A stretch of DNA of 64,000 nucleotides from an uncultured Chloroflexia bacterium (GCA_963797095.1 CAWCNY010000006.1:384001-448000); one strand, 5' to 3'. Shown: positions 3,778 to 42,283, counted from the first letter of the stretch. Made by a program: numbers and translations. The notes: a model not told the origin generated them from the letters alone.

Positions 3778-3814
3778 CCCATTGAGCGCCACATTGCAAC
3801 GCAATATGGCTCCA

Positions 3815-3837
3815 GGGGCGACCGGGTGGGTCGCCCC
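3815..3837. repeat. REP-like hairpin in 5' leader
   Basis: GGGGCGACC-GGGTG-GGTCGCCCC. Confidence 0.5.
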
Positions 3838-3901
3838 GGTGCGTAACAGGCTCACAGGCTCATACAGCCTCTTTGCTACCTCCTGCCAGGAGGCAGGGTA
3901 C

Positions 3902-6688
3902 ATGTCCAGCCTTCCCACCGGCACAGTCACGTTCCTCTATACCGATCTAGAAGAGAGCACCAGGCGCTGGGAAGCATACCCGGCGATCATGAAGGCCGCT
4001 GTCGAGAGACACGACCGGCTCTTGCGGCAGGCTATCATAGACCATGGCGGCACAGTCTTCCGCACCGAAGGCGATGCCTTCCGAGCCACCTTCACCACGG
4101 CCCCCCAGGCCCTATCTGGCGTCATAGACGCACAGCGCCAACTCCAGGCCGAGCCGTGGCCCTCCGAAGTTGCCCCCCTCAAAGTTCGCATGGCTCTCCA
4201 CACAGGCGTAGGTGAGGTGCGCGACGGCGACTATGTCGGTGCTCACCTCAACCGCGTTGCCCGCATCCTTGCCACCGCCTACGGAGGCCAGGTGCTCCTT
4301 TCCGCAGCCACTTTCGACCTCGTTCGCGATTCCCTCCCCGATGGCGTCACCCTCCGCGACCTGGGCGAACACCGCCTCAAAGACCTTCAACGCCCCGAAC
4401 AGGTCTTCCAACTCGTTATCCCCGGTCTCCCTTCCGCCTTCCCGCCCCTCCGCTCGCTCGATAACCGCCCCAACAACCTCCCCCTTCAGCGCACCCTCCT
4501 GATCGGTAGAGAAACCGAGCTTGATGCTATCCAACAACTCCTCCTACGCCCTGAGGTTGGCCTGCTGACACTGGTCGGCCCCGGTGGTATCGGCAAGACC
4601 CGACTTGCCCTCCAGGTTGGCGCTGAACTAATAGATCGCTTCCCTGATGGTGTCTTCCTCGTCTCTCTCGCTTCCGTGTCAAGCCCCGACCTCCTCTATC
4701 AGGCTACCGCTCAAGCCCTTGGTATTCAAGAAGCGGTCGGCACATCCATAGCCGACCTGGTGGCGCGTTTCCTCACCAGCAAGCTTCTGCTCCTTATCCT
4801 GGACAACTTTGAGCATATCGTAGATGCCGCTCCCGCGGTAGCGAGTCTTCTGTCTATGGCTCGCGGTCTCAAAGTGCTCGTCACGAGTCGCGAAGTGCTC
4901 CACCTCCACGGCGAGCAAGAATATCATGTGCCGCCCCTCGCCCTCCCCAACACGCGCCGCCTCCCCTCCATCGAGATCCTCTCCCAGTTCGACGCTGTAG
5001 CCCTCTTCATCCAGCGTGCGCGCCTCGTCAATTCCAACTTCCAGATCAACAACGACAATGCCCCCGCCGTCGCCGAAATATGTTTTCGGCTCGATGGCCT
5101 TCCTCTCGCCATCGAGCTGGCCGCCGCGCGCATTCGTCTCCTCCCTCCCAATGCCCTCCTTGAGCGTCTTGCCAGCCGCCTCAAACTCCTCACCGGGGGT
5201 TCTCGCGACCTCCCCGCCCGCCAGCAAACCCTCCGCGACACCATCCGCTGGAGCTACGACCTCCTTAGCTCAGGCGAGCAAATGCTTTTCCGCCGCCTCG
5301 CTATATTCGCCGGTGGCTGCACCCTCGAAGCCGCCGAAGCCATCTGCAACCGCAACGGCGACCTTGAGCTTGATGTCCTCGACGGCGTGGCCTCCCTTGT
5401 CGAAAAGAGCCTCCTCAGGAACGAATCATCTCGTCCCGGCGCATCTCAGGAGGATGACCCCCGCATCACCATGCTCGAAACTATTCGCGAGTATGCCCTT
5501 GAGCTTCTTGAGAGCGACCCTGCTGAGGCCCCCGAGATGCGCGCCAATTTCATTGCCTATTTTGAAGACCTGGCAAAAGAGGCCCAACTCCATTTGCCCA
5601 GGAGCGATCAAAAAGAATGGATCAATCGACTTGAGCTTGAATTGGACAACATCACTGCGGTCGTGCACTGGCTGCTTGATGCAGGTAAAGCGCAACGCCT
5701 GCTCCACATCGTGTGGTCCATCTGGCAGTTCTGGTACTATCGCGGCTACTTCTCCGAGGTGCTGAACTGGGTTGAAAGCGCGTTTGCACTCCCCGAAGGC
5801 AAAGCCCGCACAATTGAGCGTGCTGCCGGGCTGATGATCACCTCCATCATAGGTGCTCGCCTCGGCAACTTCGACAAAATGGGCGAATACGGTCGCGAAT
5901 CTGCCGCCATCGCCGCCGAGTTGGAGCCGACGCCCGAAGCGCGCAGCATCCGCGCCTATGCCCTCATCATGGTGGGTGCCGAAGGGGTATACCGTGAGAC
6001 CGGGCAACTGGAACGCTCTTTACTTGAAGAAAGTGTGCAAGTACTTCGCGAGATACACGATATCTGGGGCCTCGCGCTTGGCCTGCTTGATATCGGCCTG
6101 GTCGAAATGTACCACCACAACTTTGCCGAGTCGCAGGCCGCTCTCGAAGAGGGCACGGCGCTCTTTCGGCAGATTGGTGATGTCTGGGGATTAGCCCAGA
6201 TGCTCAACAGCCTGGGCGACCTCATGCGGGTTCAACAGAACTACCCGCGCGCCAAAGAGCTTTACGAAGAAAGCCTTGTCCTCTATCGTGATCTCGATAT
6301 TCGCCCCGACATTCCGGCTTCTCTGCACAATCTAGCCTATATCGCTCTCGCTCAAGGCGAGTCTGAGAAAGCCCGTAGCCTCTTCGTCGAAGCGCTCAAT
6401 TTGCAGGTCTCCTTGAAAAACAGGGGTGGAGTTGCCGAGTGCGTGGCCGGGCTTGGCGCGGTGCTGGCGGTTGAAGGTCAGGCCGAGTGGGCCACCAGGC
6501 TCTTAGCCTACGCCGATGCTGTGCGCAAAGAGGAAGGGTCGGCCTGGTGGCCCGCCGAGCGTGCCGACCGCGACCGCTACACCGCCCTCGCCCAATCGCA
6601 ACTCGACCAGGCTACCTGGGCCAAAGCCTACGCCGAGGGCCAGACCCTCACCCAGGATCGCGCCATCCAGTATGCCCTCCAACAATAA
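3902..6688 (+). CDS. class III adenylate/guanylate cyclase - NB-ARC/STAND NTPase - TPR protein
   Basis: [22 protein letters not shown]; [27 protein letters not shown]; C-terminal TPRs; AGGAGG before ATG 3902. Confidence 0.92.
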
Positions 6689-7088: not shown

Positions 7089-10000
7089 ATGGATTGCCCT
7101 AATTGCCAGACCCATAACCCCGAAGGTGCTAGGTTTTGCTTCAACTGTGGAACCTCCCTCTCCATCAATTGCAGCAATTGTGGCACCCAGCTGGTAGCCG
7201 GTGCCAAATTCTGCTTCAACTGTGGTCACCCGGTCTGTGCCCCTGTTAGCTCCACTACCGGCGCACCCCCGCCCAGCCAAGTAGCTCCTTCTCCTTCCTC
7301 CTCCATCTCCACCACCCTCACCACCGCCCCCTCCAATTCCGCCCACGACCGCCTTCAGCAATACATCCCCAAAGAGCTTCTAGGTAAGCTCGAAGCCGCC
7401 CGCGCCAACCGCAGCATGGCGGGCGAGCGCCGCATCGTCACAGTCCTCTTCTGCGATGTAAAAGGCTCCACCGCCCTGGCCGAAATGCTCGACCCCGAAG
7501 AATGGGCCGAGATCATGAATGGCGCGTTCAAATACCTCATCGAACCTATCTACAGGTATGAAGGCACCCTCGCCCGCCTCATGGGCGATGCCATTCTCGC
7601 CTTCTTCGGTGCGCCCATCGCCCACGAAGACGACCCTCAGCGTGCAGTCCTCGCAGGACTTGACATAATCGATGGGATGAAGACCTACCGCGAGAAGATC
7701 ATGCGTGAGCGCGGCTTCGACCTCAACGTCCGCATCGGCATCAACACAGGTCTTGTAGTGGTGGGCGAAGTAGGCTCCGACCTCCGCGTCGAGTACACAG
7801 CCATGGGCGACGCCGTCAACCTCGCCTCCCGCATGGAGCAGACAGCCGACCCCGATACCGTTCGCATCTCCGGCAACACCCACAAATCGGTCTCCAACCT
7901 CTTCCTCTTCAAATCCCTGGGTGACATCGAGGTGAAGGGCAAGTCCGAGCCTGTGCCTGCCTACGAGGTGCTGGGCGTCCGCGAAGGCGCAATCCCCACG
8001 CGAGGCATCGAAGGTCTATCCTCCCCCCTCGTCGGCAGAACTCGCGAGCTTTTCACCCTCCAATCGGCCCTGGACGACGTATCCGCAGGCATGGGCCGCA
8101 TAGTCTCCCTCATGGGAGAAGCCGGTCTAGGCAAATCTCGCCTGGTAGCCGAGCTAAAGGCTCAATTCCTGAACCAGGAACCGGGAACCAGGAACTTGGA
8201 ACTTGGAACTTGGAACTTATCCTGGTACGAAGGCCGCTCCCTATCGTACGAATCCACCGTGCCCTACGCTCCTTTCATCGACATGTTTAGCTCTATATTC
8301 GGCATCCACTCATCCGATAGCGACTCCGAACGCTACGACAAAGTAAGAGCCGGTGTCGAGTCTCTGCTCCCCGGCCACGGCGATGAGGTGGCCCCCTTTA
8401 TCGCCACTCTCCTGAACGTCAAACTGGACGGCGACCCCCGCGAGCGCATGCGCTACCTTGAGCCGCCAATGTTGCGCGGGCGTGTGTTCCATGCTGTTGC
8501 CCAGTTCATCGGCGCGCTTGCCTCCAATGGCCCTGTCGTCCTCCTCTTTGAAGACCTCCACTGGGTAGACCCCACCTCTCTCGAACTGATCGAGGCCCTC
8601 CTACCTCTCACCGACACCCTCCCCTTGATGCTCTTCGCCATCTTCCGCCCCAACAAGCAGGATCCCTCCTGGCGCTTCCACGAACTCGCCTCCAGCGATC
8701 ACCGCGACCGCTATGTGACCGTCTCCCTCCAACCCCTCGACGACACCGAATCCCGCCAACTTGTGGCTAACCTCCTTGAGATAGAAGACCTCCCTGAGAA
8801 AGTACGCGCCCTCATCCTCAGCAAAGCCGAGGGCAACCCCTTCTTCGTCGAAGAAGTTATCCGTTCCCTCCTCGATGCTAAACTCGTCATACGGGAAGAC
8901 GACCATTGGCGCGCCACCCGCGAGATCGAGAACATCGCCGTGCCAGATACCCTCGCCGGGGTCATCACCGCCCGCCTTGACAGGCTCGACGACGAATCGA
9001 AGTACGTCGCTCAGACCGCCTCCGTCGTAGGTCGCGATTTCCAGTATGATGTGCTCGGTGAAGTCTACGAAAGTCCCCAGACCCTTGATCCCTCCCTCGC
9101 CACCCTTCAACAGCGCGAGCTTGTGCGCGAGAAAAGCCGCATCCCGACCCGCGCCTACATGTTCAAGCACGTGCTCACCCAGGAGACCGCCTATTCCTCC
9201 GTCCTCCTGAGCAGACGGCGCGAGATACACCGCCGCGTCGCCGAATGTCTCGAACGAGTCGCCCCCGACCGTGTAAACGACATAGCCCGCCACTATTTAG
9301 AGGCTCGCCAGGATGCTCGCGCCCTTCCTTACCTGATCGAGGCCGCCGACCGCGAAGCTCGCGCAGGCGCACGCGACGAGGCCATCGGCCACTACCGCCA
9401 GGCCGTCGCAGTTTCCATAAACCTCGATGACCATGCCTCCGTGCGCAAAGCCTACGAGGGTCTGGGCAAGTCGTTGGAGTTCGCGATGCAACCGATGGAA
9501 GCTATCGAGACCTACAACACTATGCTCTCTTTTGGCGAGCAACACAGCGATCCATCTATGCAAGTCTCCGCCCTCAATAAGCTCTCCTATGCGACCGCTT
9601 TCATGCTCGGCCAGATGCCGGAGGCTGAGGCATACCTCTCACGCGCTGAAGAGATCGCCAACGACAACGCAGAATTGGTCGGCCTGGTTAAATCCTCTAC
9701 TGTGCGTTGCGGCATCTGCACTATGGTGGCCGATTTCGACAATGCCGCCAAACATCTTGAGAACGCCGCCGAGCTGGGTCGCCGCATCGAAAACCTCGAT
9801 ACCACCGCTTACGGGCTGGCGCACCGCGCCAACATGCTTACCCACCTCATGAAGTTTGACGAGGTTTATGAGGTCTCCATGGAGGGTCTCCAGGTGAGCG
9901 ACGCCGCGGGCCACTTGGAACACAAGGCCAACATCATGTCCTATCCGCTCCCCGTCTATTACATGCACAAAGGTAACCTTGCCGAGGCTTATAGGTGGGC

Positions 10001-10841
10001 GGGGGAAGGCTATACCATCGCCGACCGCATAGGCTCTCCCGTCCCCTGTATCATGGCGGCCTACTTTTCGGGCTACATCGCTGAATTGCAGGGCGACTAT
10101 GAAACAGCCCTCGATTGGCATCGCAAAGGGTTGCAGCACGCCCGCCCCATGGCCACCTTCTTTCCTTTTGTGTTGGTCCCTCCCCTTGGTGGTCTCGGCG
10201 TGATCTGCCTCGACATCTCAGATGCCCTCAAGGACAAGGTGACGGAATATCACACCGAGGCGCTCAACATCCTCAAGACCCCCATGGGTTCCCCCACAGG
10301 CGGCACAGGCTGGGCTGACCTCGGCTTTTGCGCCTTGCAACTGGGGTATCCTGATATAGCCTATCAGTATTTCGAGAACGGCCTGACCGTTCCCTCCATG
10401 CAAATGTACTTGATGAAGCCCCGGCTGCTGGCGGGTGCAGCCCTGGCCGCTCAGGCCCTCGGCAACACAGATGAGGCCACTTCCAGGATGCAGGAAGCCT
10501 GCACCTTTATGGAAGCTAACGGCCTGGATTGGTATAAACCACAATTGGCCCTCCTCGACGCCGGATTAGCCGCCGCCCTTGGCTCGTCTGAGCAGGCCCT
10601 CGAAAAGTACAGGCAAGCCATAGCCCTCTCAGAGGAGTCGCACATGCCCCACATAAAATGGCAGGCCCAACTGGGTGCCGCCAAACTCCTTCAAGAGTGT
10701 GGCAACACCGCCGAATCCCAAACGCTCCTCCAGAGCGCCCAACAAACACTCAACGAACTGTCAGCTGGCTTCAAAGACCCAACCTACAAAGAAGCCTTTC
10801 AGGAAAACCCGGCCCACCAACTAGCCGCCCAACCCCAATAA
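7089..10841 (+). CDS. double zinc ribbon - class III cyclase - AAA/STAND ATPase - TPR protein
   Basis: Four CxxC pairs at N-terminus; FCDVKGST, MGDA, GDAVNLASR; GEAGLGKS, FEDLHW, GNPFFVEE; AAGGAG RBS. Confidence 0.92.
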   Translation: MDCPNCQTHNPEGARFCFNCGTSLSINCSNCGTQLVAGAKFCFNCGHPVCAPVSSTTGAPPPSQVAPSPSSSISTTLTTAPSNSAHDRLQQYIPKELLGKLEAARANRSMAGERRIVTVLFCDVKGSTALAEMLDPEEWAEIMNGAFKYLIEPIYRYEGTLARLMGDAILAFFGAPIAHEDDPQRAVLAGLDIIDGMKTYREKIMRERGFDLNVRIGINTGLVVVGEVGSDLRVEYTAMGDAVNLASRMEQTADPDTVRISGNTHKSVSNLFLFKSLGDIEVKGKSEPVPAYEVLGVREGAIPTRGIEGLSSPLVGRTRELFTLQSALDDVSAGMGRIVSLMGEAGLGKSRLVAELKAQFLNQEPGTRNLELGTWNLSWYEGRSLSYESTVPYAPFIDMFSSIFGIHSSDSDSERYDKVRAGVESLLPGHGDEVAPFIATLLNVKLDGDPRERMRYLEPPMLRGRVFHAVAQFIGALASNGPVVLLFEDLHWVDPTSLELIEALLPLTDTLPLMLFAIFRPNKQDPSWRFHELASSDHRDRYVTVSLQPLDDTESRQLVANLLEIEDLPEKVRALILSKAEGNPFFVEEVIRSLLDAKLVIREDDHWRATREIENIAVPDTLAGVITARLDRLDDESKYVAQTASVVGRDFQYDVLGEVYESPQTLDPSLATLQQRELVREKSRIPTRAYMFKHVLTQETAYSSVLLSRRREIHRRVAECLERVAPDRVNDIARHYLEARQDARALPYLIEAADREARAGARDEAIGHYRQAVAVSINLDDHASVRKAYEGLGKSLEFAMQPMEAIETYNTMLSFGEQHSDPSMQVSALNKLSYATAFMLGQMPEAEAYLSRAEEIANDNAELVGLVKSSTVRCGICTMVADFDNAAKHLENAAELGRRIENLDTTAYGLAHRANMLTHLMKFDEVYEVSMEGLQVSDAAGHLEHKANIMSYPLPVYYMHKGNLAEAYRWAGEGYTIADRIGSPVPCIMAAYFSGYIAELQGDYETALDWHRKGLQHARPMATFFPFVLVPPLGGLGVICLDISDALKDKVTEYHTEALNILKTPMGSPTGGTGWADLGFCALQLGYPDIAYQYFENGLTVPSMQMYLMKPRLLAGAALAAQALGNTDEATSRMQEACTFMEANGLDWYKPQLALLDAGLAAALGSSEQALEKYRQAIALSEESHMPHIKWQAQLGAAKLLQECGNTAESQTLLQSAQQTLNELSAGFKDPTYKEAFQENPAHQLAAQPQ
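8171..8219 (+). repeat. Heptamer repeat (GAACYDR)x7 inside coding sequence
   Basis: gaaccag gaaccgg gaaccag gaacttg gaacttg gaacttg gaactta; encodes NQEPGTRNLELGTWNL. Confidence 0.9.
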
Positions 10842-10909
10842 CGAGTAACCAGGAACTTTCCGACTACCGACTACACCAGGGAACACATATCCCGTCCCAG
10901 GAGCCCCCA

Positions 10910-12571
10910 ATGCCCAAACCTGTAATCCTAACCGTAGACGACGAGCCCGTTGTGCTGGGCGCGATCGAGCGCGACCTGCGCCGCAAGTACGGCAAAGACT
11001 ACCAGGTTATCAGAGCCGACTCCGGCGCTGCCGCTCTCGACGCCCTCCAGCAGCTTAAGCTGCGCAACCAGCCTGTGGCCCTCTTCCTCGTAGACCAGCG
11101 CATGCCCGTCATGTCGGGCGTCGAGTTCTTGCAGGAGGCCACTCCCCTCTTCCCCGACGCCAAGCGCGCCCTCCTCACCGCCTACGCCGACACCGAGGCC
11201 GCCATCAAGGCTATCAACGAGGTCAGGCTCGACTACTACCTCATGAAGCCCTGGGACCCCCCCGACCAGAACCTCTACCCCGTGCTCGATGATCTGCTCG
11301 ACGACTGGCAGGCCCAGTTCCGACCCACCTTCGAGGGCATCCGCGTCCTCGGCCATCGCTGGTCCCCACTCTCCCACCAGATCAAAGATTTCCTGGCTCG
11401 CAACCAGATCCCGTACCATTGGGTAGACGTGGAGCTCGACCCCGAAGCCCCTACCCTCCTCGAGTCCTTGGGTGCAGATGCCACCAAGCTTCCCATTGTG
11501 CTCTTCCCCGACGGCTCTCACCTCACCCAGCCCACCAACTCCCAGGTTGCCGAAAAGGCCGGGCGCAGGCTCACGGCCAGCATGCCCTTCTACGACGTAA
11601 TAATCGTAGGTGGCGGCCCCGCCGGTCTTGCCGCCGCCGTATACGGCGCTTCCGAGGGCCTCCGCACCCTCATGATCGAGCGCGAAGCCCCCGGTGGTCA
11701 GGCGGGCACAAGCTCTCGCATCGAAAACTACCTCGGCTTTCCATCGGGCCTCACCGGTTGGGACCTCGCCCGCAGGGCCGTAACCCAGGCCACCCGCTTC
11801 GGTGCCGAATTGCTCACTCCCCAGGAGGTATACGAGTTTCGTGTGGAAGACCCCTACCGCATCGTTCGCCTGATCGACGGCACCGAGATCAGCTGCCATG
11901 CCCTCATGATCGCCACCGGCGTCAGCTACCGCAAGCTCGACCTCCCGGGCATCGAGCCCCTCACAGGGGCCGGCATATATTATGGCGCGGCCCAATCCGA
12001 AGCCATGTCCTACAAAGGCGAGGATGTCTTCATAGTGGGTGGCGCGAACTCTGCCGGCCAGGCTGCCATGTACTTCTCTCGCTACGCCACTACCGTCACT
12101 ATGCTCGTGCGCGGCGACTCGCTTGCCAAGGGCATGTCCCGATATCTGGTCGACCAGATCTCCCAAACTCCCAATATCCACGTCCTCCTCAACTCCAGCG
12201 TATCAGCTGTGCAGGGCACCGATCGCCTCGAGTCCATCACCATAGCCAACGCCGCCACCGGCGAGGAGCAAAGCGTGCCTGCGACCGCCGTCTTCATCTT
12301 CATTGGCGCGCAGCCTCGCACTGAGTGGGTAGGTGGAGTGCTCGAACGCGACGCCATGGGCTTCATCATCACAGGCCCCGACCTCCTCAAAGACAACCGG
12401 CTCCCCAAAGGCTGGCACCTCAAGCGCCAACCCTTCTGGCTCGAAGCCAGCGTCCCAGGCGTCTTCGTAGCCGGCGATGTGCGCCACCGCTCAGTAAAGC
12501 GTATGGCCACTGCCGTAGGCGAAGGCTCAATGGCCGTCCAGTTCATCCACCAGTATCTATCGACTTTGTAG
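10910..12571 (+). CDS. response-regulator receiver fused to glutaredoxin-like segment and thioredoxin-reductase-like FAD oxidoreductase lacking CxxC
   Basis: VDDE..DQRMP..LLT..KPW receiver; GGGPAG, IENYLGFP, GGANSA, FVAGD; IYYGAAQSEA in place of VSYCATCDG. Confidence 0.9.
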   Translation: MPKPVILTVDDEPVVLGAIERDLRRKYGKDYQVIRADSGAAALDALQQLKLRNQPVALFLVDQRMPVMSGVEFLQEATPLFPDAKRALLTAYADTEAAIKAINEVRLDYYLMKPWDPPDQNLYPVLDDLLDDWQAQFRPTFEGIRVLGHRWSPLSHQIKDFLARNQIPYHWVDVELDPEAPTLLESLGADATKLPIVLFPDGSHLTQPTNSQVAEKAGRRLTASMPFYDVIIVGGGPAGLAAAVYGASEGLRTLMIEREAPGGQAGTSSRIENYLGFPSGLTGWDLARRAVTQATRFGAELLTPQEVYEFRVEDPYRIVRLIDGTEISCHALMIATGVSYRKLDLPGIEPLTGAGIYYGAAQSEAMSYKGEDVFIVGGANSAGQAAMYFSRYATTVTMLVRGDSLAKGMSRYLVDQISQTPNIHVLLNSSVSAVQGTDRLESITIANAATGEEQSVPATAVFIFIGAQPRTEWVGGVLERDAMGFIITGPDLLKDNRLPKGWHLKRQPFWLEASVPGVFVAGDVRHRSVKRMATAVGEGSMAVQFIHQYLSTL

Positions 12572-12626
12572 CCGGTAATCGGAATCAGCAACGACTTTTG
12601 TGTAGCACTACTGACCCTCCAAATCC

Positions 12627-14324
12627 ATGACCCAAGCCTGCTCCCATCTGGACCAGATCCAAGAAGTCGCCCCTCAGTCCGAAGGCTGTGAGGAATGCCT
12701 CGCCCTGGGCGATCCCTGGGTCCATCTCCGCATCTGCAAGACCTGCGGTCATGTCGGCTGCTGCGACGAATCGAAGAACCGCCACGCCACCAAACATTTC
12801 CACGCGACCCATCACCCCGTCATCCAATCGTTCGAGCCGGGCGAGGACTGGATGTGGTGCTACGAGGACGAAGCCCTCATCTACCCCTCCGACGACCAGG
12901 GCCACGGCACCAAGCTTGCCATTACCAAAGAGTTCCTGCGCCGCCTCCCCATCTTCGGCAATCTTGCCGACGAGCACCTCAATAAGCTATGCGAGATAGC
13001 CGAGCCTACCACCGTCAAGGCGGGCCAGCTTCTCATGGAAGAAGGTAGCCCAGGCGATGCACTTTACATAATAGTTGACGGTGAGTTCGAGGTCACCAAG
13101 CGCGCCGGCAAAGAGACCCTCCTTCTGGGTACCCGCGGTTCAGGTGAGATGCTCGGCGAGATGTCACTCCTCGAACAGGTGCCTCGCACCGCCACGGTGC
13201 ATGCCCTGCGCGACAGCCGCGTGCTCGTCATCAGCCGCGAGGCCTTCTACAACCTCCTCACCGGCAACCCCTCCGCCGTCTTCGGCATCCTCCGCACCTT
13301 CATCGAGCGCCAGCGCAGCACCGAGACTCTCATGGTCGCGCACGACAAACTCGCCTCCCTTGGTGCCATCGCCGCCGGTCTCGCTCACGAACTGAACAAC
13401 CCCGCCGCTGCCGTTCGCCGCAGCGCCGACCAGCTACGCGAAGTCCTCGGCACCTGGCAGCGCGTCTCCATCGACTTCGACCGCCTGACTTTCACCGGCG
13501 AGCAGGTCGCCAGGCTCGAAGAGCTTCGCGACGACATGGAAGCCCGTTCCACCCGCACCCTCATGCTCGATCCCCTCGCCCGTGGCGACCGCGAAACCGA
13601 GGTCCAGGACTGGCTCGATGCCCGCTCCATAGACGAATCATGGGAGATCGCCCCCGTCCTCGTCTCCTTCGGCTGGGACGCCGCCGGGCTTGAAACCTCC
13701 CTCGCCCCCTTCTCCGAAGGCCAACTTCCCGTGATCGTCTCCTGGCTCTCCTCAGGCTCCTCCGCCTACGGACTCCTCTCCGAGGTCCAGATTAGCGCCC
13801 AGCGCATTTCCGAGATCGTCAAAGCTGTCAAGACCTACTCCTATCTCGACCAGGCCCCCATCCAGCAGGTCGACATCCACGAGGGCCTGGAAAACACCCT
13901 CGTCATGTTGCGCCACAACCTCAAAACAGGTGTCATAGTCAACAAGCAGTACGACCCAAACCTCCCCAAGATCGAGGGCTACGGCAGCGAGCTAAACCAG
14001 GTCTGGACCAATATCATCGACAACGCCATCTCGGCCATGGACGGTCACGGCGAGCTTACCATCAAAACGTACACCCAGGGCACCAACGTAATAATCGAGA
14101 TAGCCGATAATGGCCCCGGCATCCCTCCCGATGTCCAGAAGCGTATCTTCGAGCCTTTCTATACCACCAAAGGCCCAGGCGTGGGCAGCGGCCTCGGCCT
14201 CCATATCGTCTACAACATCATCGTCGACAAGCACCACGGCAGCGTCAAAGTCAACTCCCACCCCGGCTATACCTGCTTCCAGATCACCCTCCCCACGCAG
14301 TTAGCCCGCGATGCCCAGGGCTGA
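12627..14324 (+). CDS. zf-UBP - cNMP-binding - histidine kinase
   Basis: CSHL..CEEC..HLRICKTCGHVGCCD..HATKH; GEMSLL..PRTAT; AHELNNP, NIIDNA, DNGPG, FYTTK, GSGLGL. Confidence 0.92.
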   Translation: MTQACSHLDQIQEVAPQSEGCEECLALGDPWVHLRICKTCGHVGCCDESKNRHATKHFHATHHPVIQSFEPGEDWMWCYEDEALIYPSDDQGHGTKLAITKEFLRRLPIFGNLADEHLNKLCEIAEPTTVKAGQLLMEEGSPGDALYIIVDGEFEVTKRAGKETLLLGTRGSGEMLGEMSLLEQVPRTATVHALRDSRVLVISREAFYNLLTGNPSAVFGILRTFIERQRSTETLMVAHDKLASLGAIAAGLAHELNNPAAAVRRSADQLREVLGTWQRVSIDFDRLTFTGEQVARLEELRDDMEARSTRTLMLDPLARGDRETEVQDWLDARSIDESWEIAPVLVSFGWDAAGLETSLAPFSEGQLPVIVSWLSSGSSAYGLLSEVQISAQRISEIVKAVKTYSYLDQAPIQQVDIHEGLENTLVMLRHNLKTGVIVNKQYDPNLPKIEGYGSELNQVWTNIIDNAISAMDGHGELTIKTYTQGTNVIIEIADNGPGIPPDVQKRIFEPFYTTKGPGVGSGLGLHIVYNIIVDKHHGSVKVNSHPGYTCFQITLPTQLARDAQG

Positions 14325-14340
14325 TCCCTCTTTACCTACG

Positions 14341-14625
14341 ATGGACGACCCCATTCAAACCCTATCAGCTCTCCTTTCGCAGGCTAAAGCCGATCACATC
14401 GCCTATGAGATCGACGTGCTAAACGGCACCGACCCCGATTGGCCAGGCTGGTACGCTCGCTATCTGCTCGACCACGACGCCCAATCGCTCGATGGTTGGC
14501 CGTCGAGCGTCACCACCACCGGCGCTCTAGTGGCTTTGCTTGACCAAGCTGCTCAGCATCACCGATCCCACGCCACTCACGAACAGTGGCCCGACTACTA
14601 CGCCAGGTATATCCTGTCCACTTGA
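14341..14625 (+). CDS. small hypothetical protein with duplicated H..WPx(W/Y)YARY motif
   Basis: DWPGWYARYLL and QWPDYYARYIL; sits inside the operon. Confidence 0.7.
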   Translation: MDDPIQTLSALLSQAKADHIAYEIDVLNGTDPDWPGWYARYLLDHDAQSLDGWPSSVTTTGALVALLDQAAQHHRSHATHEQWPDYYARYILST

Positions 14626-14642
14626 GAGGAGAACCCGCCCCT

Positions 14643-15038
14643 ATGTCCCCGAAGGAGATTGAGCTGATCCTGGCCCGCCAACTGGCGAGCTATCTGGCTG
14701 TGCCCGTCTTTGTCGCCGACCCACAGGGCAATCTGGTCTACTACAACGAGCAGGCCGGTATCGTGCTCGGCCACCCCTTTGAGGACTCCGAGGACCTCCC
14801 CCTCTACGACAGGCTGGGTTCCCTTGAGCCGCGCGAGGAGGCAGGCAAACCCATCCCCCCCGCAAACATGCCCCTCGCCCTTGCCGTCACCGACCGGCGT
14901 CCCGTCCATCACCGCTTCTGGATTCGCGGCCTCGACGGTGTCCCTCGCCACATCGAAGCCACCGCCTTTCCCCTCCTCGGTTTCGATAATCGCTTCGCCG
15001 GCGCGATGTCCGTCTTCTGGGAGATCGACAAAGGATGA
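14643..15038 (+). CDS. stand-alone PAS domain protein
   Basis: VFVADPQGNLVYYNEQA PAS signature; GAGGAG RBS; ATGA overlap with next gene. Confidence 0.8.
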   Translation: MSPKEIELILARQLASYLAVPVFVADPQGNLVYYNEQAGIVLGHPFEDSEDLPLYDRLGSLEPREEAGKPIPPANMPLALAVTDRRPVHHRFWIRGLDGVPRHIEATAFPLLGFDNRFAGAMSVFWEIDKG

Positions 15039-15886
15039 AGGTCACTATCTGGGGGAGCCGCGGCTCTGTCGCCTCCCCCGGCCCCGACACCATCCGTTAT
15101 GGCGGCAATACCTCCTGCGTAGAGGTGCGCGGCGACGATGGCACTCTCCTGGTGCTCGATGCCGGTACCGGTATGCGCCGCCTCGGTTCCACACTCCCCG
15201 AAGCTATCGGGCGAGTTGACATAATGCTCACCCACCTCCACATGGACCACATCCAGGGCCTCGGCTTCTTCGCCCCCCTTCGCCGCGTTGGTGCCGAGGT
15301 ACATATCTGGGGTCCCGCCGGCAGCACTCTCAGCCTTCGCTCCCGCCTGGGCCTCTACCTCTCCCCACCCCTCTTCCCCGTCCACATCCGCGAGCTACCA
15401 TGCACCCTCTATTTCCACGAGCTTCCCAATGAGCAGCCCACAATCCGGATAGGCGAGTTCGAGGTATCGTCGGCGGTAGTCTGTCACCCCGACCCCACCA
15501 TCGGCTACCGCATCACCTCTCCCTCTGGCACCCTCGCCTATCTCCCCGACCACGAACCCGCCCTCGGCCTTCGAGATTTCACCCTCCCCGGCGAGTGGGT
15601 TTCCGGCTATTCCCTCGCCCGCGAAGCCGACCTTCTGGTCCACGACGCCCAGTACACCACAGATGAGTACAACGAGCGCATCGGCTGGGGCCATAGCTCT
15701 ATCCTCCAAACCTTCCAGTTCGCCGAGCTATCCCATGTCCGCCAATTGGCCCCCTTCCACCACGATCCCACCCACGACGACGACACCCTTGACCGCCTCA
15801 TCTCAGAAGTCCAACAATCCAAACAATGGCCCTTCACCGTAGTACCCGCCGCCGAAGGCGCAACTTACACCCTCCCTAACGCATAA
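15035..15886 (+). CDS. MBL-fold metallo-hydrolase (putative phosphodiesterase)
   Basis: GSRGS, YGGNTSC, DAGTG, THLHMDH, GWGHS, FHHDP. Confidence 0.9.
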   Translation: MKVTIWGSRGSVASPGPDTIRYGGNTSCVEVRGDDGTLLVLDAGTGMRRLGSTLPEAIGRVDIMLTHLHMDHIQGLGFFAPLRRVGAEVHIWGPAGSTLSLRSRLGLYLSPPLFPVHIRELPCTLYFHELPNEQPTIRIGEFEVSSAVVCHPDPTIGYRITSPSGTLAYLPDHEPALGLRDFTLPGEWVSGYSLAREADLLVHDAQYTTDEYNERIGWGHSSILQTFQFAELSHVRQLAPFHHDPTHDDDTLDRLISEVQQSKQWPFTVVPAAEGATYTLPNA

Positions 15887-15961
15887 ACTTCGAACTCTAA
15901 ACACAAACAATCCTTCGTGCCCTTCGTCAAAGCTTTGTCCCTTCGTGTTCCAAAATCCAAA

Positions 15962-16549
15962 ATGATCCAGCCTCTACCCGTGGGTGCGCTCTGGCTCCTC
16001 GATCTTCAGCATCAAGCCCCCAACCCCGTCCTCCCCAACATCCCTGCTACCTTCCAGCAGGTCGGCTCCGAAACGGCTTCCGCTCTGGCCGAAACGATGG
16101 GCTTCGGCGACCCTGCCCCGGTCCTCGAACGCTTCTCCGGCACTCGTCGCTGCTACGTTGGCTGGGTCAATGGCGTGCTTGCCACCTATGGCTGGGTGAG
16201 CTTCAACGAAGAGTGGGTCGGTGAGCTTGAGCTTCGTGTCCGGCTCGCACCCGACGAAGCCTACATCTGGGACTGCGCTACCCTGCAATCCTACCGTGGA
16301 CAGGGCCTCTACCCCGCCCTTCTGGCCCACATCGCCGGACTGCTCCAGGCCGAAGGGCTGCATCGCATCTGGATAGGCGCTGATACAGGCAGCGTGCCCT
16401 CGCAAAAGGGCATAACCCGGGCAGGCTTCCACCCCATCGCCGACTTCTATGCAGACCCTGCCCTACCTGAGCGATACTACACCGTTGGCCGTCCCGGCGT
16501 CCCCGAAGACCTCGTTCATGCAGCCCACAACGTACTTCTCTCCGGCTAG
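15962..16549 (+). CDS. GNAT family N-acetyltransferase
   Basis: YIWDCAT..YRGQGLY and S.KGI.RAGF motifs. Confidence 0.8.
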   Translation: MIQPLPVGALWLLDLQHQAPNPVLPNIPATFQQVGSETASALAETMGFGDPAPVLERFSGTRRCYVGWVNGVLATYGWVSFNEEWVGELELRVRLAPDEAYIWDCATLQSYRGQGLYPALLAHIAGLLQAEGLHRIWIGADTGSVPSQKGITRAGFHPIADFYADPALPERYYTVGRPGVPEDLVHAAHNVLLSG

Positions 16550-16564: not shown

Positions 16565-18079
16565 TTACTCCATGCTCTCTATCTCACCAAGTAGCGCATT
16601 AGTCTCCTTCAACGCAGGGTAGAGCGCCCTGTAGCAATCGTAAACCCGCTCGTATACCGCCTCCGCCCTATCGTCAGGCATCGTCACCTCGCCCAACTTG
16701 ACAGTCGCGGCACAGGCGGCCTCCACGTCAGGCCACGCCCCTGCCGCCACCCCCGCCAGCAAAGCCGCCCCATAGCTTCCCCCTTCGCTGGTAGCCACCG
16801 TCACCAATTCCACCCCCAGCACGTCCGATAGGATCTGCCTCCACAATCTGCTCCTTGAACCCCCACCTGCTACCCTTACCTGCCGCACCGGCTCAAGCCC
16901 TGCCTCTCCAAGCAGCCCGAAGCTATCCTTAAGCCCGAAAGCCACCCCCTCCAGCAGCGCACGTGTCACATGCGCTCGCCTGTGCCGTACCGTCAGCCCC
17001 ACCCATGCGCCCCTGGCCAGTGGGTCGGGATAGGGCGTCCTCTCTCCCGTCAAATACGGCAGGAACACCAAACCCCCGCTTCCTGTCGGCGCTTCCTCCG
17101 CCTCTGCCACCAGCGTATCGAAGCCCACCCCCGCCGCCAGCGTATCCCTGTACCATTGGAGGCTTCCCGCCGCGCTCAGCATCACCCCCATCAGGTGCCA
17201 CCGTCCCGGCAGCGCGTGGCAAAATGCGTGCAGCCTCCCCTCCGGCTCGATCAGCACCTCCGCAGTTGGCGCGAACACCACCCCCGAAGTGCCCAGCGTC
17301 ACCGACACCACTCCCGGCGCGACCGCTCCCATCCCCACCGCCCCCGCCGCCTGGTCGCCGACTCCTGCCACCACCGGCGTTCCCGCCCTCAATCCCGTCG
17401 CCGCTGCCCCCTCCGCGCTAACCTCCCCGGTCACCTGCGGCCCCTCATACGTAGGCGGCAGCCACTCCATCGGTATATCCAGCGCCTCCACCACCTCCCG
17501 CGACCAATCGCGCTTGCGCAGGTCAAACAGCAGCGTCCCCGACCCATCCGCCTTGTCCATCGCGTAGCCGCCCGTCAGCCTGTACCGCACGTAATCCTTG
17601 GGCAACAGCATATGCCGCGCCCTCGCGTAAACCTCAGGCTCGTGCTCTGCCACCCACAACAGCTTAGGCGCGGTAAACCCCGTCAGCGCCTCGTTTCCCG
17701 TGATCTCGATCAATCTCTTCCTGCCCAGCCTGCTCCGGATCTCGTCGCACTGCGCCCCCGTCCGCTGGTCATTCCACAATATCGCCGGGCGCAATACCTC
17801 CCCTTGCTCGTCCAGCAGCACCAGCCCGTGCATCTGCCCCGTCAGCCCCACCGCCACCACATCCTCGCCGCCCGCCTGCGCCTCCCCAAGCGCCGCCTTT
17901 ATACTCCGCGTGATCCCCTCCCACCAATCGTGCGGGTTCTGCTCGCTCCAAAGCGGTCGCGGGGTAGACAACATAAGCGGCGTTGAAGCCGAACCCGCCA
18001 CCTCCCCATCTCCATCAATAAGGAGCGCCTTGGCCCCTGTAGTCGAGATATCGATCCCCAAAAACAGCTGTCGTTTCAT
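16565..18079 (-). CDS. xylB: xylulokinase
   Basis: GIDISTT, TGQMHG, ILWNDQR, GFTAPK, LPYLTGERTP. Confidence 0.93.
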   Translation of the reverse strand: MKRQLFLGIDISTTGAKALLIDGDGEVAGSASTPLMLSTPRPLWSEQNPHDWWEGITRSIKAALGEAQAGGEDVVAVGLTGQMHGLVLLDEQGEVLRPAILWNDQRTGAQCDEIRSRLGRKRLIEITGNEALTGFTAPKLLWVAEHEPEVYARARHMLLPKDYVRYRLTGGYAMDKADGSGTLLFDLRKRDWSREVVEALDIPMEWLPPTYEGPQVTGEVSAEGAAATGLRAGTPVVAGVGDQAAGAVGMGAVAPGVVSVTLGTSGVVFAPTAEVLIEPEGRLHAFCHALPGRWHLMGVMLSAAGSLQWYRDTLAAGVGFDTLVAEAEEAPTGSGGLVFLPYLTGERTPYPDPLARGAWVGLTVRHRRAHVTRALLEGVAFGLKDSFGLLGEAGLEPVRQVRVAGGGSRSRLWRQILSDVLGVELVTVATSEGGSYGAALLAGVAAGAWPDVEAACAATVKLGEVTMPDDRAEAVYERVYDCYRALYPALKETNALLGEIESME

Positions 18080-20355: not shown

Positions 20356-22692
20356 CTACAAATCGCCATTGCTGTCCGTGATCCTACCGATCACCTGCTC
20401 AAGCGGCATCGCCCGGCCCTCTTCCCACGCCCTCGCAAACGCCTCCTCGTCCATCCGGGATCGTGTCTCTTCCACACATTGCTCGTACTCCGCCTGGTCC
20501 ACAGGCGGCAGAGGCGCACCAACGGCCAGGCGCAACGTTTCCTCCACGCCATACAACCATGACGCTCTCAGCGGGTGCTTGCGCGCGGTCTCAACCGTTG
20601 CAAGCCCTCCCAGGCAGGCCAGTATTATGTGCTTCGCGTCAAGTTCCCAGCCAAGCTTCAACGCCTCCACAAACAGAGTGCTTGCCCTATCATAGTCCCC
20701 CATGAATCGCGCCGCCTCCGCAAAGTTGGTAAGTGTCGCCGCTATGCCGCGCCTATCATCGAGTTCGCGGTACAACGGCAGGCTCTCCTCCATATAAACG
20801 ACCGCCTGCGCGAAGTTCTCCCTGTACAATTCCAGTAACCCCAGGTTGACCAGTATATTCGCCAGCCCCAGTTTGTCCTGGGCCTCTCTCTTAATACCCA
20901 GGCACATCTCGAAGTATTCCGCTGCCCGGTCAAAATCACCCTGATCCATAGCGACAAGCCCCAGCACCGATAGCGCCGATGCCGTACCGTTGCTATCCCC
21001 CAACTCCTTCCGGATCGCGATACTAACCTGGAGCCACTGTTCCGCCACCTTCAGGTCTCCTTGTGCTTGCGCCAGCGCCCCCACGCTGTAGGCCACATCA
21101 GCCCTCAACCTCGCCGGAAACCCTTCACTGTGCTCAAGCACTTGCCCCAATCTCTTGCGCCCCTCCGTCAAATACCCTTTCATATCCCAGAAATATCTGA
21201 GCGATACCGCAAGCCGGGCCGCGATCTCGGTCTCTCCGTTATCGAGCGCCCAATCCAGTGCCAGGCGCAGATTATCGTGCTCCTCTTCCAATTTCGTGAG
21301 CCACAGCCCCTGCTCAGAGCCACTCAGCAAAGGACCGGCGGCCTCGGCCAGCGCCAGGTAATATTCGGCGTGATTCCGCCGTATCGTTGCTGCCTCCCCG
21401 CTTGCTTCCAGCAATTGCGCCGCGTATTGGCGTATCATCTCCAGCATCGTCAGGCGCAACTCGCCTCCTCTATCCTCCCTCTGCAACAGACTCTTATCCA
21501 GGAGCGACATAACCACATCCAGCGCGTCCGTCGCTTGATCGGAGTAGACGTAGCACACCGCCTGCACCGCTGCCAGCGTGCACCCTCCTGAGAACACCCC
21601 CATTCGCGTAAAGAGGGTCCGCTCTTCTTCCTTCAGCAATTCATAGCTGGCGTCGATGGCATGCCATAGCGTCTGATGCCGCTCCGGCAGGTCTCGCGGG
21701 CCTTGCGTGAGCAGCACCAACCTGCTATCGAGCATAGAAAGCAGCATCTCAGGGCTTAATAGCTTGCACCGCGCCGCCACAAGCTCAATAGCAAGCGGCA
21801 GCCCGTTCAGCCTTACGCAAATAGCGGCTATCGCTCTCGCGTTCTCCTTGTTCAGCACAAAATCAGGCCTCACCGCCCTCGCACGCTCCACGAACAGTGC
21901 GATAGCCGGATATCGTGCCAGTTCCTCCTCACCTGGCAGATTCGCCAGGTCGGGCGCGTCCAACGGCTCGATTGGATACTGCTGCTCGCCGCGCACCCTC
22001 AACGCTTCCCGGCTGGTCACGAGCACCTTGATCTGAGAACATTCCGCTATAACCTCGGCCACGTTCGGCCCCGCCTCTACCACCTGCTCGAAGTTGTCCA
22101 GTAGCAGCAGCGCCTTCTTACCCTTCAGACGCTCTACCAGTACAGGCAATATCGGCTCCCCACTGCTGTCGCTAACATCCACCGCCTGCGCGATGGTGGG
22201 GATCACCAGGTCCGCCGACCTGATAGGCGACAAAGCCACAAAGAGCACCCCATCCCCAAACTCCCTGAGCACGAATTTTGCTACTTCCAGGGCAACCCGT
22301 GTCTTGCCGATACCCGGCGCCCCCACCAGAGTCACCAGTCTTGATCCTTCCGAAAGAAGCAACTCGCGTATCGACGCCACCGTCTCTTCTCGCCCCAACA
22401 GCGGCGTCAGGGGCGTGGGCAGATTCGTCTCCGTCGTGCCGTGCTCATCTGCTTCGTCTGCATCCGGCTGCCAGCGAGCAAGTGATATAAACGCTGGACG
22501 CTCTTCCGAAGCTATATTCAGGCAATCCGCAAGTAGCTCGGCTATCTGCCTCGACGGCTTGCGCTCTCCTAGTTCCAGCTTCTCTATGAGCGAATGAGAG
22601 CACCCCACACAGGCAGCCAGTTCTTTCCGGGAAAGATCAAGCGCCTGGCGTCGTTGTCTAAGCCACTCGCCGAACGATGTTGCGTGGTTCAT
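20356..22692 (-). CDS. XRE HTH - NB-ARC/STAND - TPR transcriptional regulator
   Basis: FGEWLRQRR..ELA..KLELGERKPS; [27 protein letters not shown]; TPRs. Confidence 0.92.
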   Translation of the reverse strand: MNHATSFGEWLRQRRQALDLSRKELAACVGCSHSLIEKLELGERKPSRQIAELLADCLNIASEERPAFISLARWQPDADEADEHGTTETNLPTPLTPLLGREETVASIRELLLSEGSRLVTLVGAPGIGKTRVALEVAKFVLREFGDGVLFVALSPIRSADLVIPTIAQAVDVSDSSGEPILPVLVERLKGKKALLLLDNFEQVVEAGPNVAEVIAECSQIKVLVTSREALRVRGEQQYPIEPLDAPDLANLPGEEELARYPAIALFVERARAVRPDFVLNKENARAIAAICVRLNGLPLAIELVAARCKLLSPEMLLSMLDSRLVLLTQGPRDLPERHQTLWHAIDASYELLKEEERTLFTRMGVFSGGCTLAAVQAVCYVYSDQATDALDVVMSLLDKSLLQREDRGGELRLTMLEMIRQYAAQLLEASGEAATIRRNHAEYYLALAEAAGPLLSGSEQGLWLTKLEEEHDNLRLALDWALDNGETEIAARLAVSLRYFWDMKGYLTEGRKRLGQVLEHSEGFPARLRADVAYSVGALAQAQGDLKVAEQWLQVSIAIRKELGDSNGTASALSVLGLVAMDQGDFDRAAEYFEMCLGIKREAQDKLGLANILVNLGLLELYRENFAQAVVYMEESLPLYRELDDRRGIAATLTNFAEAARFMGDYDRASTLFVEALKLGWELDAKHIILACLGGLATVETARKHPLRASWLYGVEETLRLAVGAPLPPVDQAEYEQCVEETRSRMDEEAFARAWEEGRAMPLEQVIGRITDSNGDL

Positions 22693-31147: not shown

Positions 31148-31196
31148 CCGACTACCAATTACCGACCACCACTCGTCACTCGTCACTCGTCACTCG
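31148..31196 (+). repeat. Heptamer repeats including (YCACTCG)x4
   Basis: Read directly; contains the LuxR stop codon. Confidence 0.85.
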
Positions 31197-38392: not shown

Positions 38393-38436
38393 ACCCCTTT
38401 CTGCGCACGGACGAGTTATTACACATTACAGGAGAT

Positions 38437-39030: not shown

Positions 39031-39100
39031 GACAGCCTGGTAGCGAAGGTGTCAGAGAATGATCGTCTGGCACACCTGTGACGAAATGGTGATAAAGAAG

Positions 39101-39289
39101 GAAATGAGGTCCACTCTGGACCTCATTTCACGCCTAGAATTACGAAATCCTACCCTTTTGTGCCGAAGGTGGGAAATGGCTGCCGGGGGTTGTCTGATGC
39201 CGTTTCGTGCCTGCTGTGCCGTGGAAATGACAGCTGGTGTCGGCAAATGACGGCAAATGTCGGGCAGGATGTGACATGGCCGTGACATC
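39101..39289. mobile_element. att junction 1: hairpin, tRNA-end core, arm with GTGACAT repeats
   Basis: 13-bp hairpin 39101-39129; core TGTGCCGAAGGTGGGA 39159-39174; TGTGACATG 39270, CGTGACATC 39281. Confidence 0.85.
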
Positions 39290-39405
39290 GGATTGGGCGG
39301 TCCCCAGCCTTGAGGAAGGTCAGAACGCTCGAGCAGGCACCGCAATCTATGGCCTGTCTCTCCGCAACCTGGCCTTCAGCCGCAAGCCGTCCCGGCTGAA
39401 CCTGC

Positions 39406-42217: not shown

Positions 42218-42283
42218 TACATTTCCGCACGAGTCTCACGTACATGTGTCAAGCGCAAACCTAGAGGCGGCAAGCTCATATGT

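Follow-up and report, generated by a model that had tools for sequence, protein, structure and literature searches.

Response regulators in which a receiver domain is fused to a body resembling thioredoxin reductase (TrxR), and which are encoded together with a histidine kinase, are catalogued as the TrxB class of P2CS and P2RP. A listed example is SCO7298 of Streptomyces coelicolor, which the accessible text of two census papers pairs with the kinase SCO7297 without giving gene names (PMC9739842; PMC9953108). In the accessible parts of two expression studies SCO7298 is induced by polysulfide (PMC9952706) and by acid shock (PMC2631018), and both studies call it a thioredoxin reductase. Beyond the census listings and the expression of SCO7298 we found no functional study of such a pair in the literature searched, in which subscription journals were mostly out of reach; the pair is thus already catalogued, with its function uncharacterised in that literature. 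Here we analyse a kinase–regulator pair of this kind, likened to SCO7298 by class listing alone, which is encoded in a 64-kb stretch of DNA (the window) from an uncultured soil Chloroflexia bacterium (GCA_963797095.1, CAWCNY010000006.1:384001-448000). The pair lies in a string of seven co-oriented genes on the + strand (7089–16549, from open reading frame (ORF) listing and translation; Table 1), and the host genome comprises 6.0 Mb in 8 contigs and is rated 93% complete.

The neighbours of the pair resemble parts of other known systems. Class III nucleotidyl cyclases of the mycobacterial type, for example Rv0386, join cyclase, ATPase and TPR regions in one STAND protein. In Pycsar systems a class III-type cyclase is encoded beside a protein that binds cyclic nucleoside monophosphates (cNMPs). 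Among hydrolases of the metallo-β-lactamase (MBL) fold, YhfI, Apyc1 and yeast PDE1 are grouped as class II MBL phosphodiesterases in the accessible text of PMC9117128, which gives cAMP and cGMP as the preferred substrates of YhfI. The initial annotation, made from the sequence of the window alone, had combined such elements into a self-contained signalling system with writer, reader, effector and eraser. Our comparisons suggest instead that the locus is a composite of three units of different age and not one ancient system. For the clade to which the locus belongs, we give an even chance to the reading that the STAND-gated cyclase feeds the adjacent kinase, which would set the phosphorylation of the flavoprotein, and that a PAS protein and an MBL hydrolase probably degrade the nucleotide.

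The core pair is found far beyond the Chloroflexota. A homologue search with the regulator gave at least 8000 candidates, the best of which include cyanobacterial proteins with 70–71% identity; members of the 71%-identical cluster are named 'fused response regulator/thioredoxin-disulfide reductase', and NCBI proteins 83% identical to the regulator carry the label Chloroflexia bacterium. From a scan of species-representative genomes we obtained 80 full-length loci in nine phyla (Chloroflexota, Cyanobacteriota, Planctomycetota, Acidobacteriota, Pseudomonadota, Gemmatimonadota, Bacteroidota, Actinomycetota, and Verrucomicrobiota; the cross-phylum set). A kinase with a cNMP-like sensor adjoins the regulator in the same orientation in 71 of them (59 downstream, 12 upstream), so that the adjacency of reader and effector assumed in the initial annotation is indeed a conserved feature; in three of the nine exceptions (L063, L082, and L095) the kinase has the same core, but its sensor is of another type or not detectable. 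In related genomes the flavoprotein query was matched in 52 of 61 cases (E ≤ 1e-30), about 20 times at full length including the receiver, and the pair is adjacent in 15 of the 18 loci which we fetched from published related genomes (the relatives' set). The related-genome tallies for the flavoprotein and the MBL protein include the unpublished genomes G016, G021, G022, and G033, of which the first three support no claim on gene context.

ORFs in the homologous loci were picked greedily by length, which often over-extends the starts and yields spurious antisense ORFs in high-GC DNA. Therefore, all adjacency counts rest on domain hits and not on gene calls; the hidden Markov models (HMMs) for the domains were built from the window domains and iterated on the fetched loci and the host genome. 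De novo clustering of the neighbours in 98 loci revealed no widely conserved partner beyond the pair, and the second-largest neighbour cluster looks like an antisense-ORF artefact of the crude ORF picking. By these comparisons the core pair appears to be an ancient, widespread and real conserved unit which, outside the lineage studied here, is conserved on its own. Among two-component systems whose output is an enzyme, it is one of the more widespread.

The regulator has a clear receiver (Response_reg, 52.8 bits, cut-off 30.2) and a Pyr_redox_2 domain (124.3 bits), and its middle domain matches Glutaredoxin (Grx, PF00462) below threshold (18.6 bits, cut-off 22.9). The score against TIGR01292, thioredoxin-disulfide reductase, is 242.2 and thus under the equivalog cut-off of 343.45. 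By sequence the body has the two-Rossmann fold for flavin adenine dinucleotide (FAD) and NAD(P)H of the low-molecular-weight TrxB proteins (7jyp, 7aaw, and 4gcm; E 1.7e-51 to 7jyp), from which it differs by GAAQ in place of the CxxC, by a 19-residue insertion and by the N-terminal Cys-less Grx-like domain. GAAQ aligns with CAAC of 7jyp in the HMMER alignment to solved TrxRs and with CATC of the paralogues, and WSPLS aligns with WCSDC of the paralogues, the Grx CxxC being replaced by SPLS. None of the 10 aligned family members from Chloroflexota and cyanobacteria has a Cys at either CxxC position; stand-alone Grx-TrxR paralogues of related genomes (L156 and L157) retain WCSDC and CATC. As both redox motifs are replaced, the regulator should not be able to work like TrxB on thioredoxin, that is, to reduce disulfides by the TrxR route or to pass electrons via a dithiol. 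The redox effector like TrxB of the initial annotation, in which the missing CxxC motifs went unmentioned, can therefore not be upheld. The label thioredoxin reductase, which databases commonly attach to the flavoprotein of the pair, does not suit this family either, which is without the defining CxxC and for which this chemistry is not possible by the usual route.

The cofactor sites have been kept. In the 10-member alignment the FAD motif GGGPAG, the NAD(P)H motif GGANSAG and a GD motif are invariant or nearly so, a YYG..E motif is invariant, and the family-specific insertion carries the invariant residues W502, R506, and P508. The regulator is thus probably still a flavoprotein that binds FAD and NAD(P)H. 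In the receiver T90 is invariant, and D10, D11, D62, and K113 are nearly so. An AlphaFold2 model from the 10-row alignment (pLDDT 74.6, pTM 0.41) was too poor for domain packing or the active site and was not used.

The flavoprotein could alternatively be a sensor of redox state or NAD(P)H, with the receiver acting as a phosphate sink or partner switch and the output consisting of protein–protein contact, for example with a zf-UBP domain. Such a role would suit a body that has lost all catalytic Cys although it is otherwise 70% identical between Chloroflexia and cyanobacteria, it would suit a module with no other output domain, and zf-UBP partners occur in 30 of the 80 cross-phylum loci. However, an N-terminal receiver and a C-terminal body are the usual order for a regulated output, the cofactor motifs together with the invariants of the insertion suggest a conserved active surface, and a sister family has a cNMP sensor in the place of the receiver, as expected for a regulated enzyme. 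We therefore regard the sensor role as improbable and continue with the flavoprotein as the regulated output. In the sister family, found as L024:348-2012 (−) and L155:2491-4233 (+), both of G035, cNMP_binding is fused straight to the Cys-less Grx/TrxR-like body in proteins of ~555–580 amino acids (aa), with cassettes that look partly degenerate. Both CxxC motifs are gone from the receiver-fused and from the cNMP-fused form, and the two forms have the 19-residue insertion and a 2-residue insertion in common. The sister family is large, PF00027 being present in 120 of the 120 best matches among the matches listed. These direct fusions appear to provide independent support for the control of the flavoprotein by a nucleotide-type sensor.

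The kinase combines zf-UBP (48.4 bits), which the initial annotation had not mentioned, with cNMP_binding (PF00027, 76.7 bits) and HATPase_c (90.6 bits). Its HisKA match is under the cut-off (16.4 vs 26.9), and the H-box His of GLAHELNNP is conserved in all 92 aligned kinases. The zf-UBP domain is fused to the kinase in 8 of the 18 relatives' loci, as in the window; in the cross-phylum set it is never fused, and a small separate zf-UBP gene lies within 4 kb in the 30 loci mentioned above. At L040:1163-3268 (+) of G019 zf-UBP follows ~130 bp after the receiver–flavoprotein gene and is itself followed by a WD40 protein, with no kinase; the longest-ORF call merged the two genes there, which may be fused or separate. 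The cNMP cassette of the kinase reads GEMSLLEQVPRTATV in the window, a canonical GE...PRxA[ST] with its Glu and Arg, and it is thus intact as the initial annotation had stated. Across the family the cassette Arg is present in 15 of 92 kinases (42 have Tyr) and the cassette Glu in 31 (34 have Ala), so that most members of the kinase family probably respond to another signal or have another mode of binding.

The gene upstream of the pair codes for a cyclase-STAND protein with matches to Zn_Ribbon_1 (49.8 bits), DZR (45.8 bits), Guanylate_cyc (PF00211, 93.7 bits, cut-off 21.9), AAA_16 (85.4 bits, cut-off 32.6) and TPR. A P-loop, GEAGLGKS, is visible in the translation, and the ATPase is followed by TPR in the STAND layout. 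The cyclase–ATPase–TPR part matches TOMM_kin_cyc (TIGR03903) with 304 bits, under the cut-off of 705.75. Unlike TOMM_kin_cyc and the Rv0386 type, the protein has neither a kinase domain nor a LuxR helix-turn-helix (HTH) domain, and it carries an N-terminal double zinc ribbon. Both metal-binding Asp (FCD.. and MGD..) and the Asn and Arg of ..VNLASR.. are conserved in the window cyclase and in all eight aligned family members (six from the relatives' loci and two paralogues from the own genome), and the catalytic residues align with those of CyaB, Cya2, and CyaC. The specificity pair is Arg/Thr in the window cyclase and in all eight members, compared with Lys/Thr in CyaB and CyaC and Glu/Gly in Cya2: the purine-specifying position is Arg and not Lys as in 3r5g and 1wc0 or Glu as in 2w01, and the Thr is the same as in CyaB and CyaC. 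Because of the change from Lys to Arg the product cannot be predicted from the specificity residues, but it is probably cAMP or cGMP.

Eight of the 18 relatives' loci carry a cyclase at the pair, and seven of these cyclases are orthologues of the window cyclase; three arrangements occur. The gene lies upstream and co-oriented in L031, L032, L035, L036, L037, and L044, with the STAND part alone on the contig in L031 and the gene broken into several frames in L035; in L033 it lies downstream of the kinase, and in L034 the order is regulator, kinase, MBL, a different stand-alone cyclase of 282 aa, and an insertion sequence transposase. Flanking genes vary among the cyclase-linked loci (XdhC, thioesterase, aldo-keto reductase; shikimate-pathway genes in the window). 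A maximum likelihood tree built on the flavoprotein body groups the window with every cyclase-linked relative in one clade (11 rows, SH-aLRT 95). Since all of them are in this single clade, the association seems to have been gained once and then retained and rearranged, with a loss in L045.

The cassette type follows the same line. Counted per locus, a canonical cassette is present in 15 loci (the window and 14 others) and a non-canonical one in 73; a cyclase is found in 9 of the former and in 2 of the latter (Fisher p 4e-7). Since the cyclase linkage traces to the single clade, in which 11 of the 15 canonical-cassette loci fall, this contrast reflects essentially a single event in evolution and cannot serve as a test on independent samples. 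In this clade, the pattern fits the idea of a writer signalling to a reader, and the pathway from cNMP to kinase to flavoprotein proposed in the initial annotation is plausible here.

The remaining unit consists of the PAS and MBL genes. The matches are to PAS_4 (27.2 bits) and Lactamase_B_2 (58.7 bits), and in the MBL protein H67, H69, D71, H72, H151, D172, H220, and H242/H243 are invariant or nearly so and the five metal-ligand motifs are invariant. Orthologues of the MBL gene (at least 58% identity) occur in 5 of 60 related genomes, with a PAS gene directly upstream in four of the five. In addition, we collected 80 PAS-MBL loci from metagenomes; of the 62 with at least 400 bp of upstream sequence, 61 have a PAS gene that ends between −60 and +150 bp relative to the start of the MBL gene. 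Thus, PAS and MBL appear to be a separate, nearly obligate two-gene cassette which is mostly found away from the kinase–regulator pair, and they are probably a two-subunit enzyme. A complex prediction for the two proteins gives weak support to their binding: the score is 0.42 with 0.00 for the best control, the runs agree in at least 88% of the contacts and the partner pLDDT is at least 84. In the benchmark 58 of 80 solved complexes and 2 of 110 mismatched pairs came up to this mark, but among those that did so with a score ≤0.60 were only 7 of the 80 complexes and both mismatches.

The AlphaFold2 model of the MBL protein (pLDDT 86.5, pTM 0.89) has as best folds in Foldseek 1zkp, human ELAC1, RNase Z, Bacillus subtilis YhfI, and PhnP, with Apyc1 at rank 45; the match to YhfI (6kns) has E 2e-13 and TM 0.70/0.81, that to Apyc1 (7u2s) E 8e-10. 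With the class II MBL phosphodiesterases the protein shares the HxHxDH di-zinc motif, the size, the fold and the signalling context, at ~20% sequence identity to those compared. Unlike YhfI, Apyc1, and PDE1 it has a nearly obligate PAS partner gene, and none is described for these enzymes in the accessible text of the source cited above. The model suggests that the protein belongs to the phosphodiesterase branch of the MBL fold, and its proposed role as cNMP eraser is plausible. That part of the initial annotation stands through the placement in a branch that includes YhfI, but the family cut-offs are not reached. Against the eraser, the protein has no match to PF02112, the class II cAMP phosphodiesterase family, at E ≤ 0.01, it stays under every curated cut-off (NF041851 55.9 vs 400, RNase Z TIGR02651 67.5 vs 292.95), and its fold is no closer to YhfI than to RNase Z and ELAC1.

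It is conceivable, if rather doubtful, that the MBL protein is an RNase Z/ElaC-like or PhnP-like phosphodiesterase that acts under PAS regulation on RNA ends or another phosphodiester and not on cNMPs; this concerns the MBL sub-claim alone and is compatible with the proposed signalling by the other genes. RNase Z is in fact its best NCBIfam match and ELAC1 and RNase Z are ranked with YhfI by Foldseek. Moreover, the host genome holds no RNase Z above the TIGR02651 cut-off, the window protein being the best match there (38 + 28 bits), and 75 of the 80 metagenome loci are without a cyclase. In five loci (L210, L211, L217, L223, and L224) a related gene lies directly downstream of PAS-MBL, which in L210 is an HD_4 gene (RelA/SpoT-type HD). 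On the other hand, 67.5 bits are far under the RNase Z cut-off, the presence in 5 of 60 related genomes is unlike a housekeeping tRNA enzyme, and the fusions and neighbours of the family are REC, cNMP_binding, GGDEF, and cyclases. A housekeeping RNase Z was dropped as an explanation on account of this patchy distribution. Five of the 80 metagenome loci have a same-strand cyclase downstream, directly adjacent in L162, L198, and L237 (confirmed by Pfam), and these cyclases have three different architectures; 5 cyclases in 434 kb of PAS-MBL loci compare with ~12 in the 6.0-Mb host genome.

Fused forms of the MBL protein were also seen. A single metagenome ORF of 761 aa, L239:354-2639 (+), combines an MBL domain of the window family with REC, cNMP_binding, and GGDEF. 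Homologues at 36–42% identity occur as MBL-REC fusions in L135, L147, and L138, the last from the unpublished genome G033. In L139, L142, L146, and L148 MBL homologues share an ORF with an AhpC/TSA peroxiredoxin-like domain; these may be over-extended ORFs. The PAS-MBL cassette is in itself a common, uncharacterised two-gene unit with links to nucleotide signalling.

Several observations weigh against a circuit made of all these genes. A cyclase domain is present in just 2 of the 80 cross-phylum loci (L049 and L081), is absent from 78, and is not found in more of them at E ≤ 1; the same cyclase HMM detected cyclases of HAMP, hydrolase and other types in contigs from metagenomes and is therefore not blind to diverse cyclases. 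No cyclase is found at L038–L043, relatives whose kinase lacks zf-UBP, nor within 20 kb in L045 inside the clade. The canonical-cassette lineages outside the clade (L051, L069, L070, and L085) have no cyclase nearby, and the ancestral ligand of the kinase family may not have been a cyclic nucleotide, since most of its kinases are without the cassette Glu and Arg. The host genome has ~12 cyclase-domain ORFs and 6 cNMP-domain ORFs, and its cyclase-STAND paralogues C1 and C3 adjoin unrelated genes, so that any cyclase could feed the kinase. Finally, MBL orthologues lie at the pair in G014, G025, and G006 and away from it in G011 and G035, in the latter beside a glycosyl hydrolase.

These observations would be explained if the genes were mere neighbours, the pair alone being functional and the cyclase-STANDs, the small gene, PAS-MBL, and the GNAT gene being there by common descent; the input of the kinase would then be the cNMP pool of the whole cell or some other ligand. 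STAND-TPR (NB-ARC/TPR) paralogues number more than 20 in the genome, which makes STAND genes common neighbours, the tail genes differ from locus to locus, and PAS-MBL lies away from the pair in G011, in G035 and in each of the 80 metagenome loci. We consider this explanation possible, though not the likelier outcome. Mere neighbourhood does not readily account for a cyclase which was kept through three arrangements despite changing flanks, including the relocation in L033 and the unrelated small cyclase in L034, nor for canonical cassettes lying almost wholly within the cyclase-linked clade. The gaps of 16 to 68 bp with one stop/start overlap and the recurrence of cyclases beside PAS-MBL in unrelated metagenome contigs also speak for a functional link. 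Overall, the initial interpretation is partly supported. The self-contained system is not supported, with the cyclase absent outside the clade as given above and with MBL present in 3 and PAS in 2 of the 18 relatives' loci. The statistical linkage of cyclase and MBL to the pair seems limited to one clade, in which the cyclase was kept through rearrangements; both linkages fail outside it.

A Pycsar- or STAND-type defence against phages, in which the STAND protein senses a phage protein, the cyclase raises the alarm and a cNMP-binding effector responds, appears highly improbable. STAND NTPases are known defence sensors, and with PADLOC the cyclase domain is hit by PycC models (best 87.7 bits) and the cNMP domain of the kinase by PycTIR models (54.2 bits). 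But these matches are at the level of domains without a full system, the effector pair spans nine phyla and in most loci has no cyclase beside it, Pfam shows no killing domain of the TIR, transmembrane or nuclease kind in the locus proteins, and the window flanks are housekeeping genes (chorismate synthase, dehydroquinate synthase, and FGGY sugar kinase). The locus shares with Pycsar the class III-type cyclase encoded beside a cNMP-binding protein; it differs in that the effector is a histidine kinase feeding a flavoprotein and not a TIR or membrane-disrupting protein, and in that the cyclase is a large STAND protein. As the cNMP-binding protein is a kinase, we do not assign the locus to Pycsar.

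Thus, we prefer signalling from the cyclase via the kinase to the flavoprotein, and suggest the following course. In the ancient unit a soluble kinase with a CAP-type sensor and zf-UBP, fused here and encoded by a separate small gene elsewhere, would phosphorylate Asp62 of the regulator, whose output would be a flavoprotein derived from a Grx-TrxR fusion by loss of both dithiols and gain of the 19-residue insertion. The cyclase-STAND would have been added once at the base of one Chloroflexia clade. A ligand on its TPR arm may drive ATP-dependent oligomerisation, which would pair the cyclase domains, active as dimers, and lead to a cyclic nucleotide, probably cAMP or cGMP. As the kinase of this clade keeps the canonical cassette, the nucleotide most likely switches the kinase activity and with it the phosphorylation state and activity of the flavoprotein, for which O2, a quinone, or an iron-sulfur or other protein partner are candidate acceptors. 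The mobile PAS-MBL cassette most likely hydrolyses the nucleotide in this sub-clade and resets the signal. Gene order, domains, motifs, conservation, and fold are observed, and from them we infer every biochemical step.

If these steps are true, the family of the pair would gain a defined ligand and phosphorelay and, for the first time, an output that can be assayed. The locus is the variant with the most readable input, as it has a canonical cassette and a cyclase next door, and a candidate reset enzyme is part of the same gene string; what is new in the window is that cassette type and cyclase presence are linked, that the cNMP-fused sister family serves as a control of the logic, and that a PAS-MBL cassette is present. 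An even more far-reaching possibility, which we think unlikely, is a complete private second-messenger circuit: the STAND-gated Arg/Thr cyclase would make a possibly non-canonical nucleotide, the zf-UBP/cNMP kinase would read it and switch the thiol-less flavoenzyme, this enzyme would have a new chemistry, for example as a phosphorylation-gated NAD(P)H oxidase or electron valve, and PAS-MBL would be an undescribed class of two-subunit, ligand-regulated cNMP phosphodiesterases that is wide in soil bacteria.

Table 1. Genes of the locus and its upstream neighbour in the 64-kb window (positions counted from the first nucleotide of the window).
Product	Position	Strand	Basis
Upstream STAND protein, 968 aa: divergent cyclase-like N-domain, NB-ARC ATPase, TPR	3782..6688	+	Pfam
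Candidate cNMP writer, 1250 aa: double zinc ribbon, class III nucleotidyl cyclase, AAA_16 STAND ATPase, TPR	7089..10841	+	Pfam, alignments
Response regulator, 553 aa: receiver, then a Grx-like and a TrxR-like FAD/NAD(P)H domain, both Cys-less	10910..12571	+	Pfam, NCBIfam, alignments
Soluble histidine kinase, 565 aa: zf-UBP, cNMP-binding domain, H-box/HATPase core	12627..14324	+	Pfam, alignments
Small protein, 94 aa, two WPxxYARY repeats	14341..14625	+	Translation; no Pfam family
Stand-alone PAS protein, 131 aa; stop overlaps MBL start by 4 bp	14643..15038	+	Pfam
Candidate cNMP eraser, 283 aa: phosphodiesterase-type hydrolase of the MBL fold with HLHMDH	15035..15886	+	Pfam, NCBIfam, predicted fold
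GNAT acetyltransferase, co-oriented, 30 bp downstream of MBL	15917..16549	+	Acetyltransf_1 36.4 bits

The initial annotation had described six co-oriented genes with gaps of 68, 55, 16, 17, and −4 bp, and the ORFs and translations bear this out; including the GNAT gene the gaps are 68, 55, 16, 17, −4, and 30 bp in gene order. The motifs quoted in it (the metal-binding Asp and N..R of the cyclase, GEMSLL..PRTAT, LVDQRMP, HLHMDH, and WPGWYARY/WPDYYARY) are present. It was also right that the six proteins lack a DNA-binding output, no such Pfam domain being found in the proteins of 7089–15886, and an obvious transmembrane segment: a single Kyte-Doolittle-19 stretch exceeds 1.6, the Pro/Gly-rich residues 1023–1041 of the cyclase-STAND within its TPR region. 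A consensus scan alone gave no terminator-like site on the + strand between 7089 and 15886. A search of sequencing runs returned three soil DNA runs of one study with small shares and listed no RNA run.

The gene upstream of the cyclase-STAND (3782–6688) had been taken for a second cyclase-STAND. The STAND part holds (NB-ARC 39.7 bits, TPR_12 43.4 bits), but the cyclase domain is below threshold (Guanylate_cyc 19.4 bits, cut-off 21.9), and its cyclase-like core has a 9-residue deletion in the alignment. For these two reasons we dropped it as a second writer and treat it as a neighbour that is not shown to be a member of the module. Its true start may be the later ATG of MSSLPTG, and at least 50 tblastn segments, several of them full length, match it in the host genome. 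The 94-aa protein with its motifs WPGWYARY and WPDYYARY belongs to a family of proteins mostly 90–115 aa long, in which 162 cluster representatives match at E ≤ 1e-3 and 13 reach E ≤ 1e-10; its gene is at the same position in one of the 18 relatives' loci (L031). The GNAT gene had no tblastn match in any of these 18 loci and was therefore dropped as a module member.

Elsewhere in the window further STAND/TPR regulators with DNA-binding outputs are encoded on the − strand, an HTH-NB-ARC-TPR protein (20356–22692) and a MalT-TPR-LuxR protein (31183–32835). The region 37741–52869 is possibly a mobile or defence islet: it contains a transposase-type HTH (37741–38379), an integrase fragment (39807–40364) and four ORFs without a Pfam match (42517–47201, −) beside an SNF2/ResIII helicase (47149–49455, −) and a clostripain-family peptidase (50284–52869). 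In window positions 1–24000 the GC skew of the + strand is negative in all 1-kb bins (−0.08 to −0.33), even across the − strand gene at 16565–18079.

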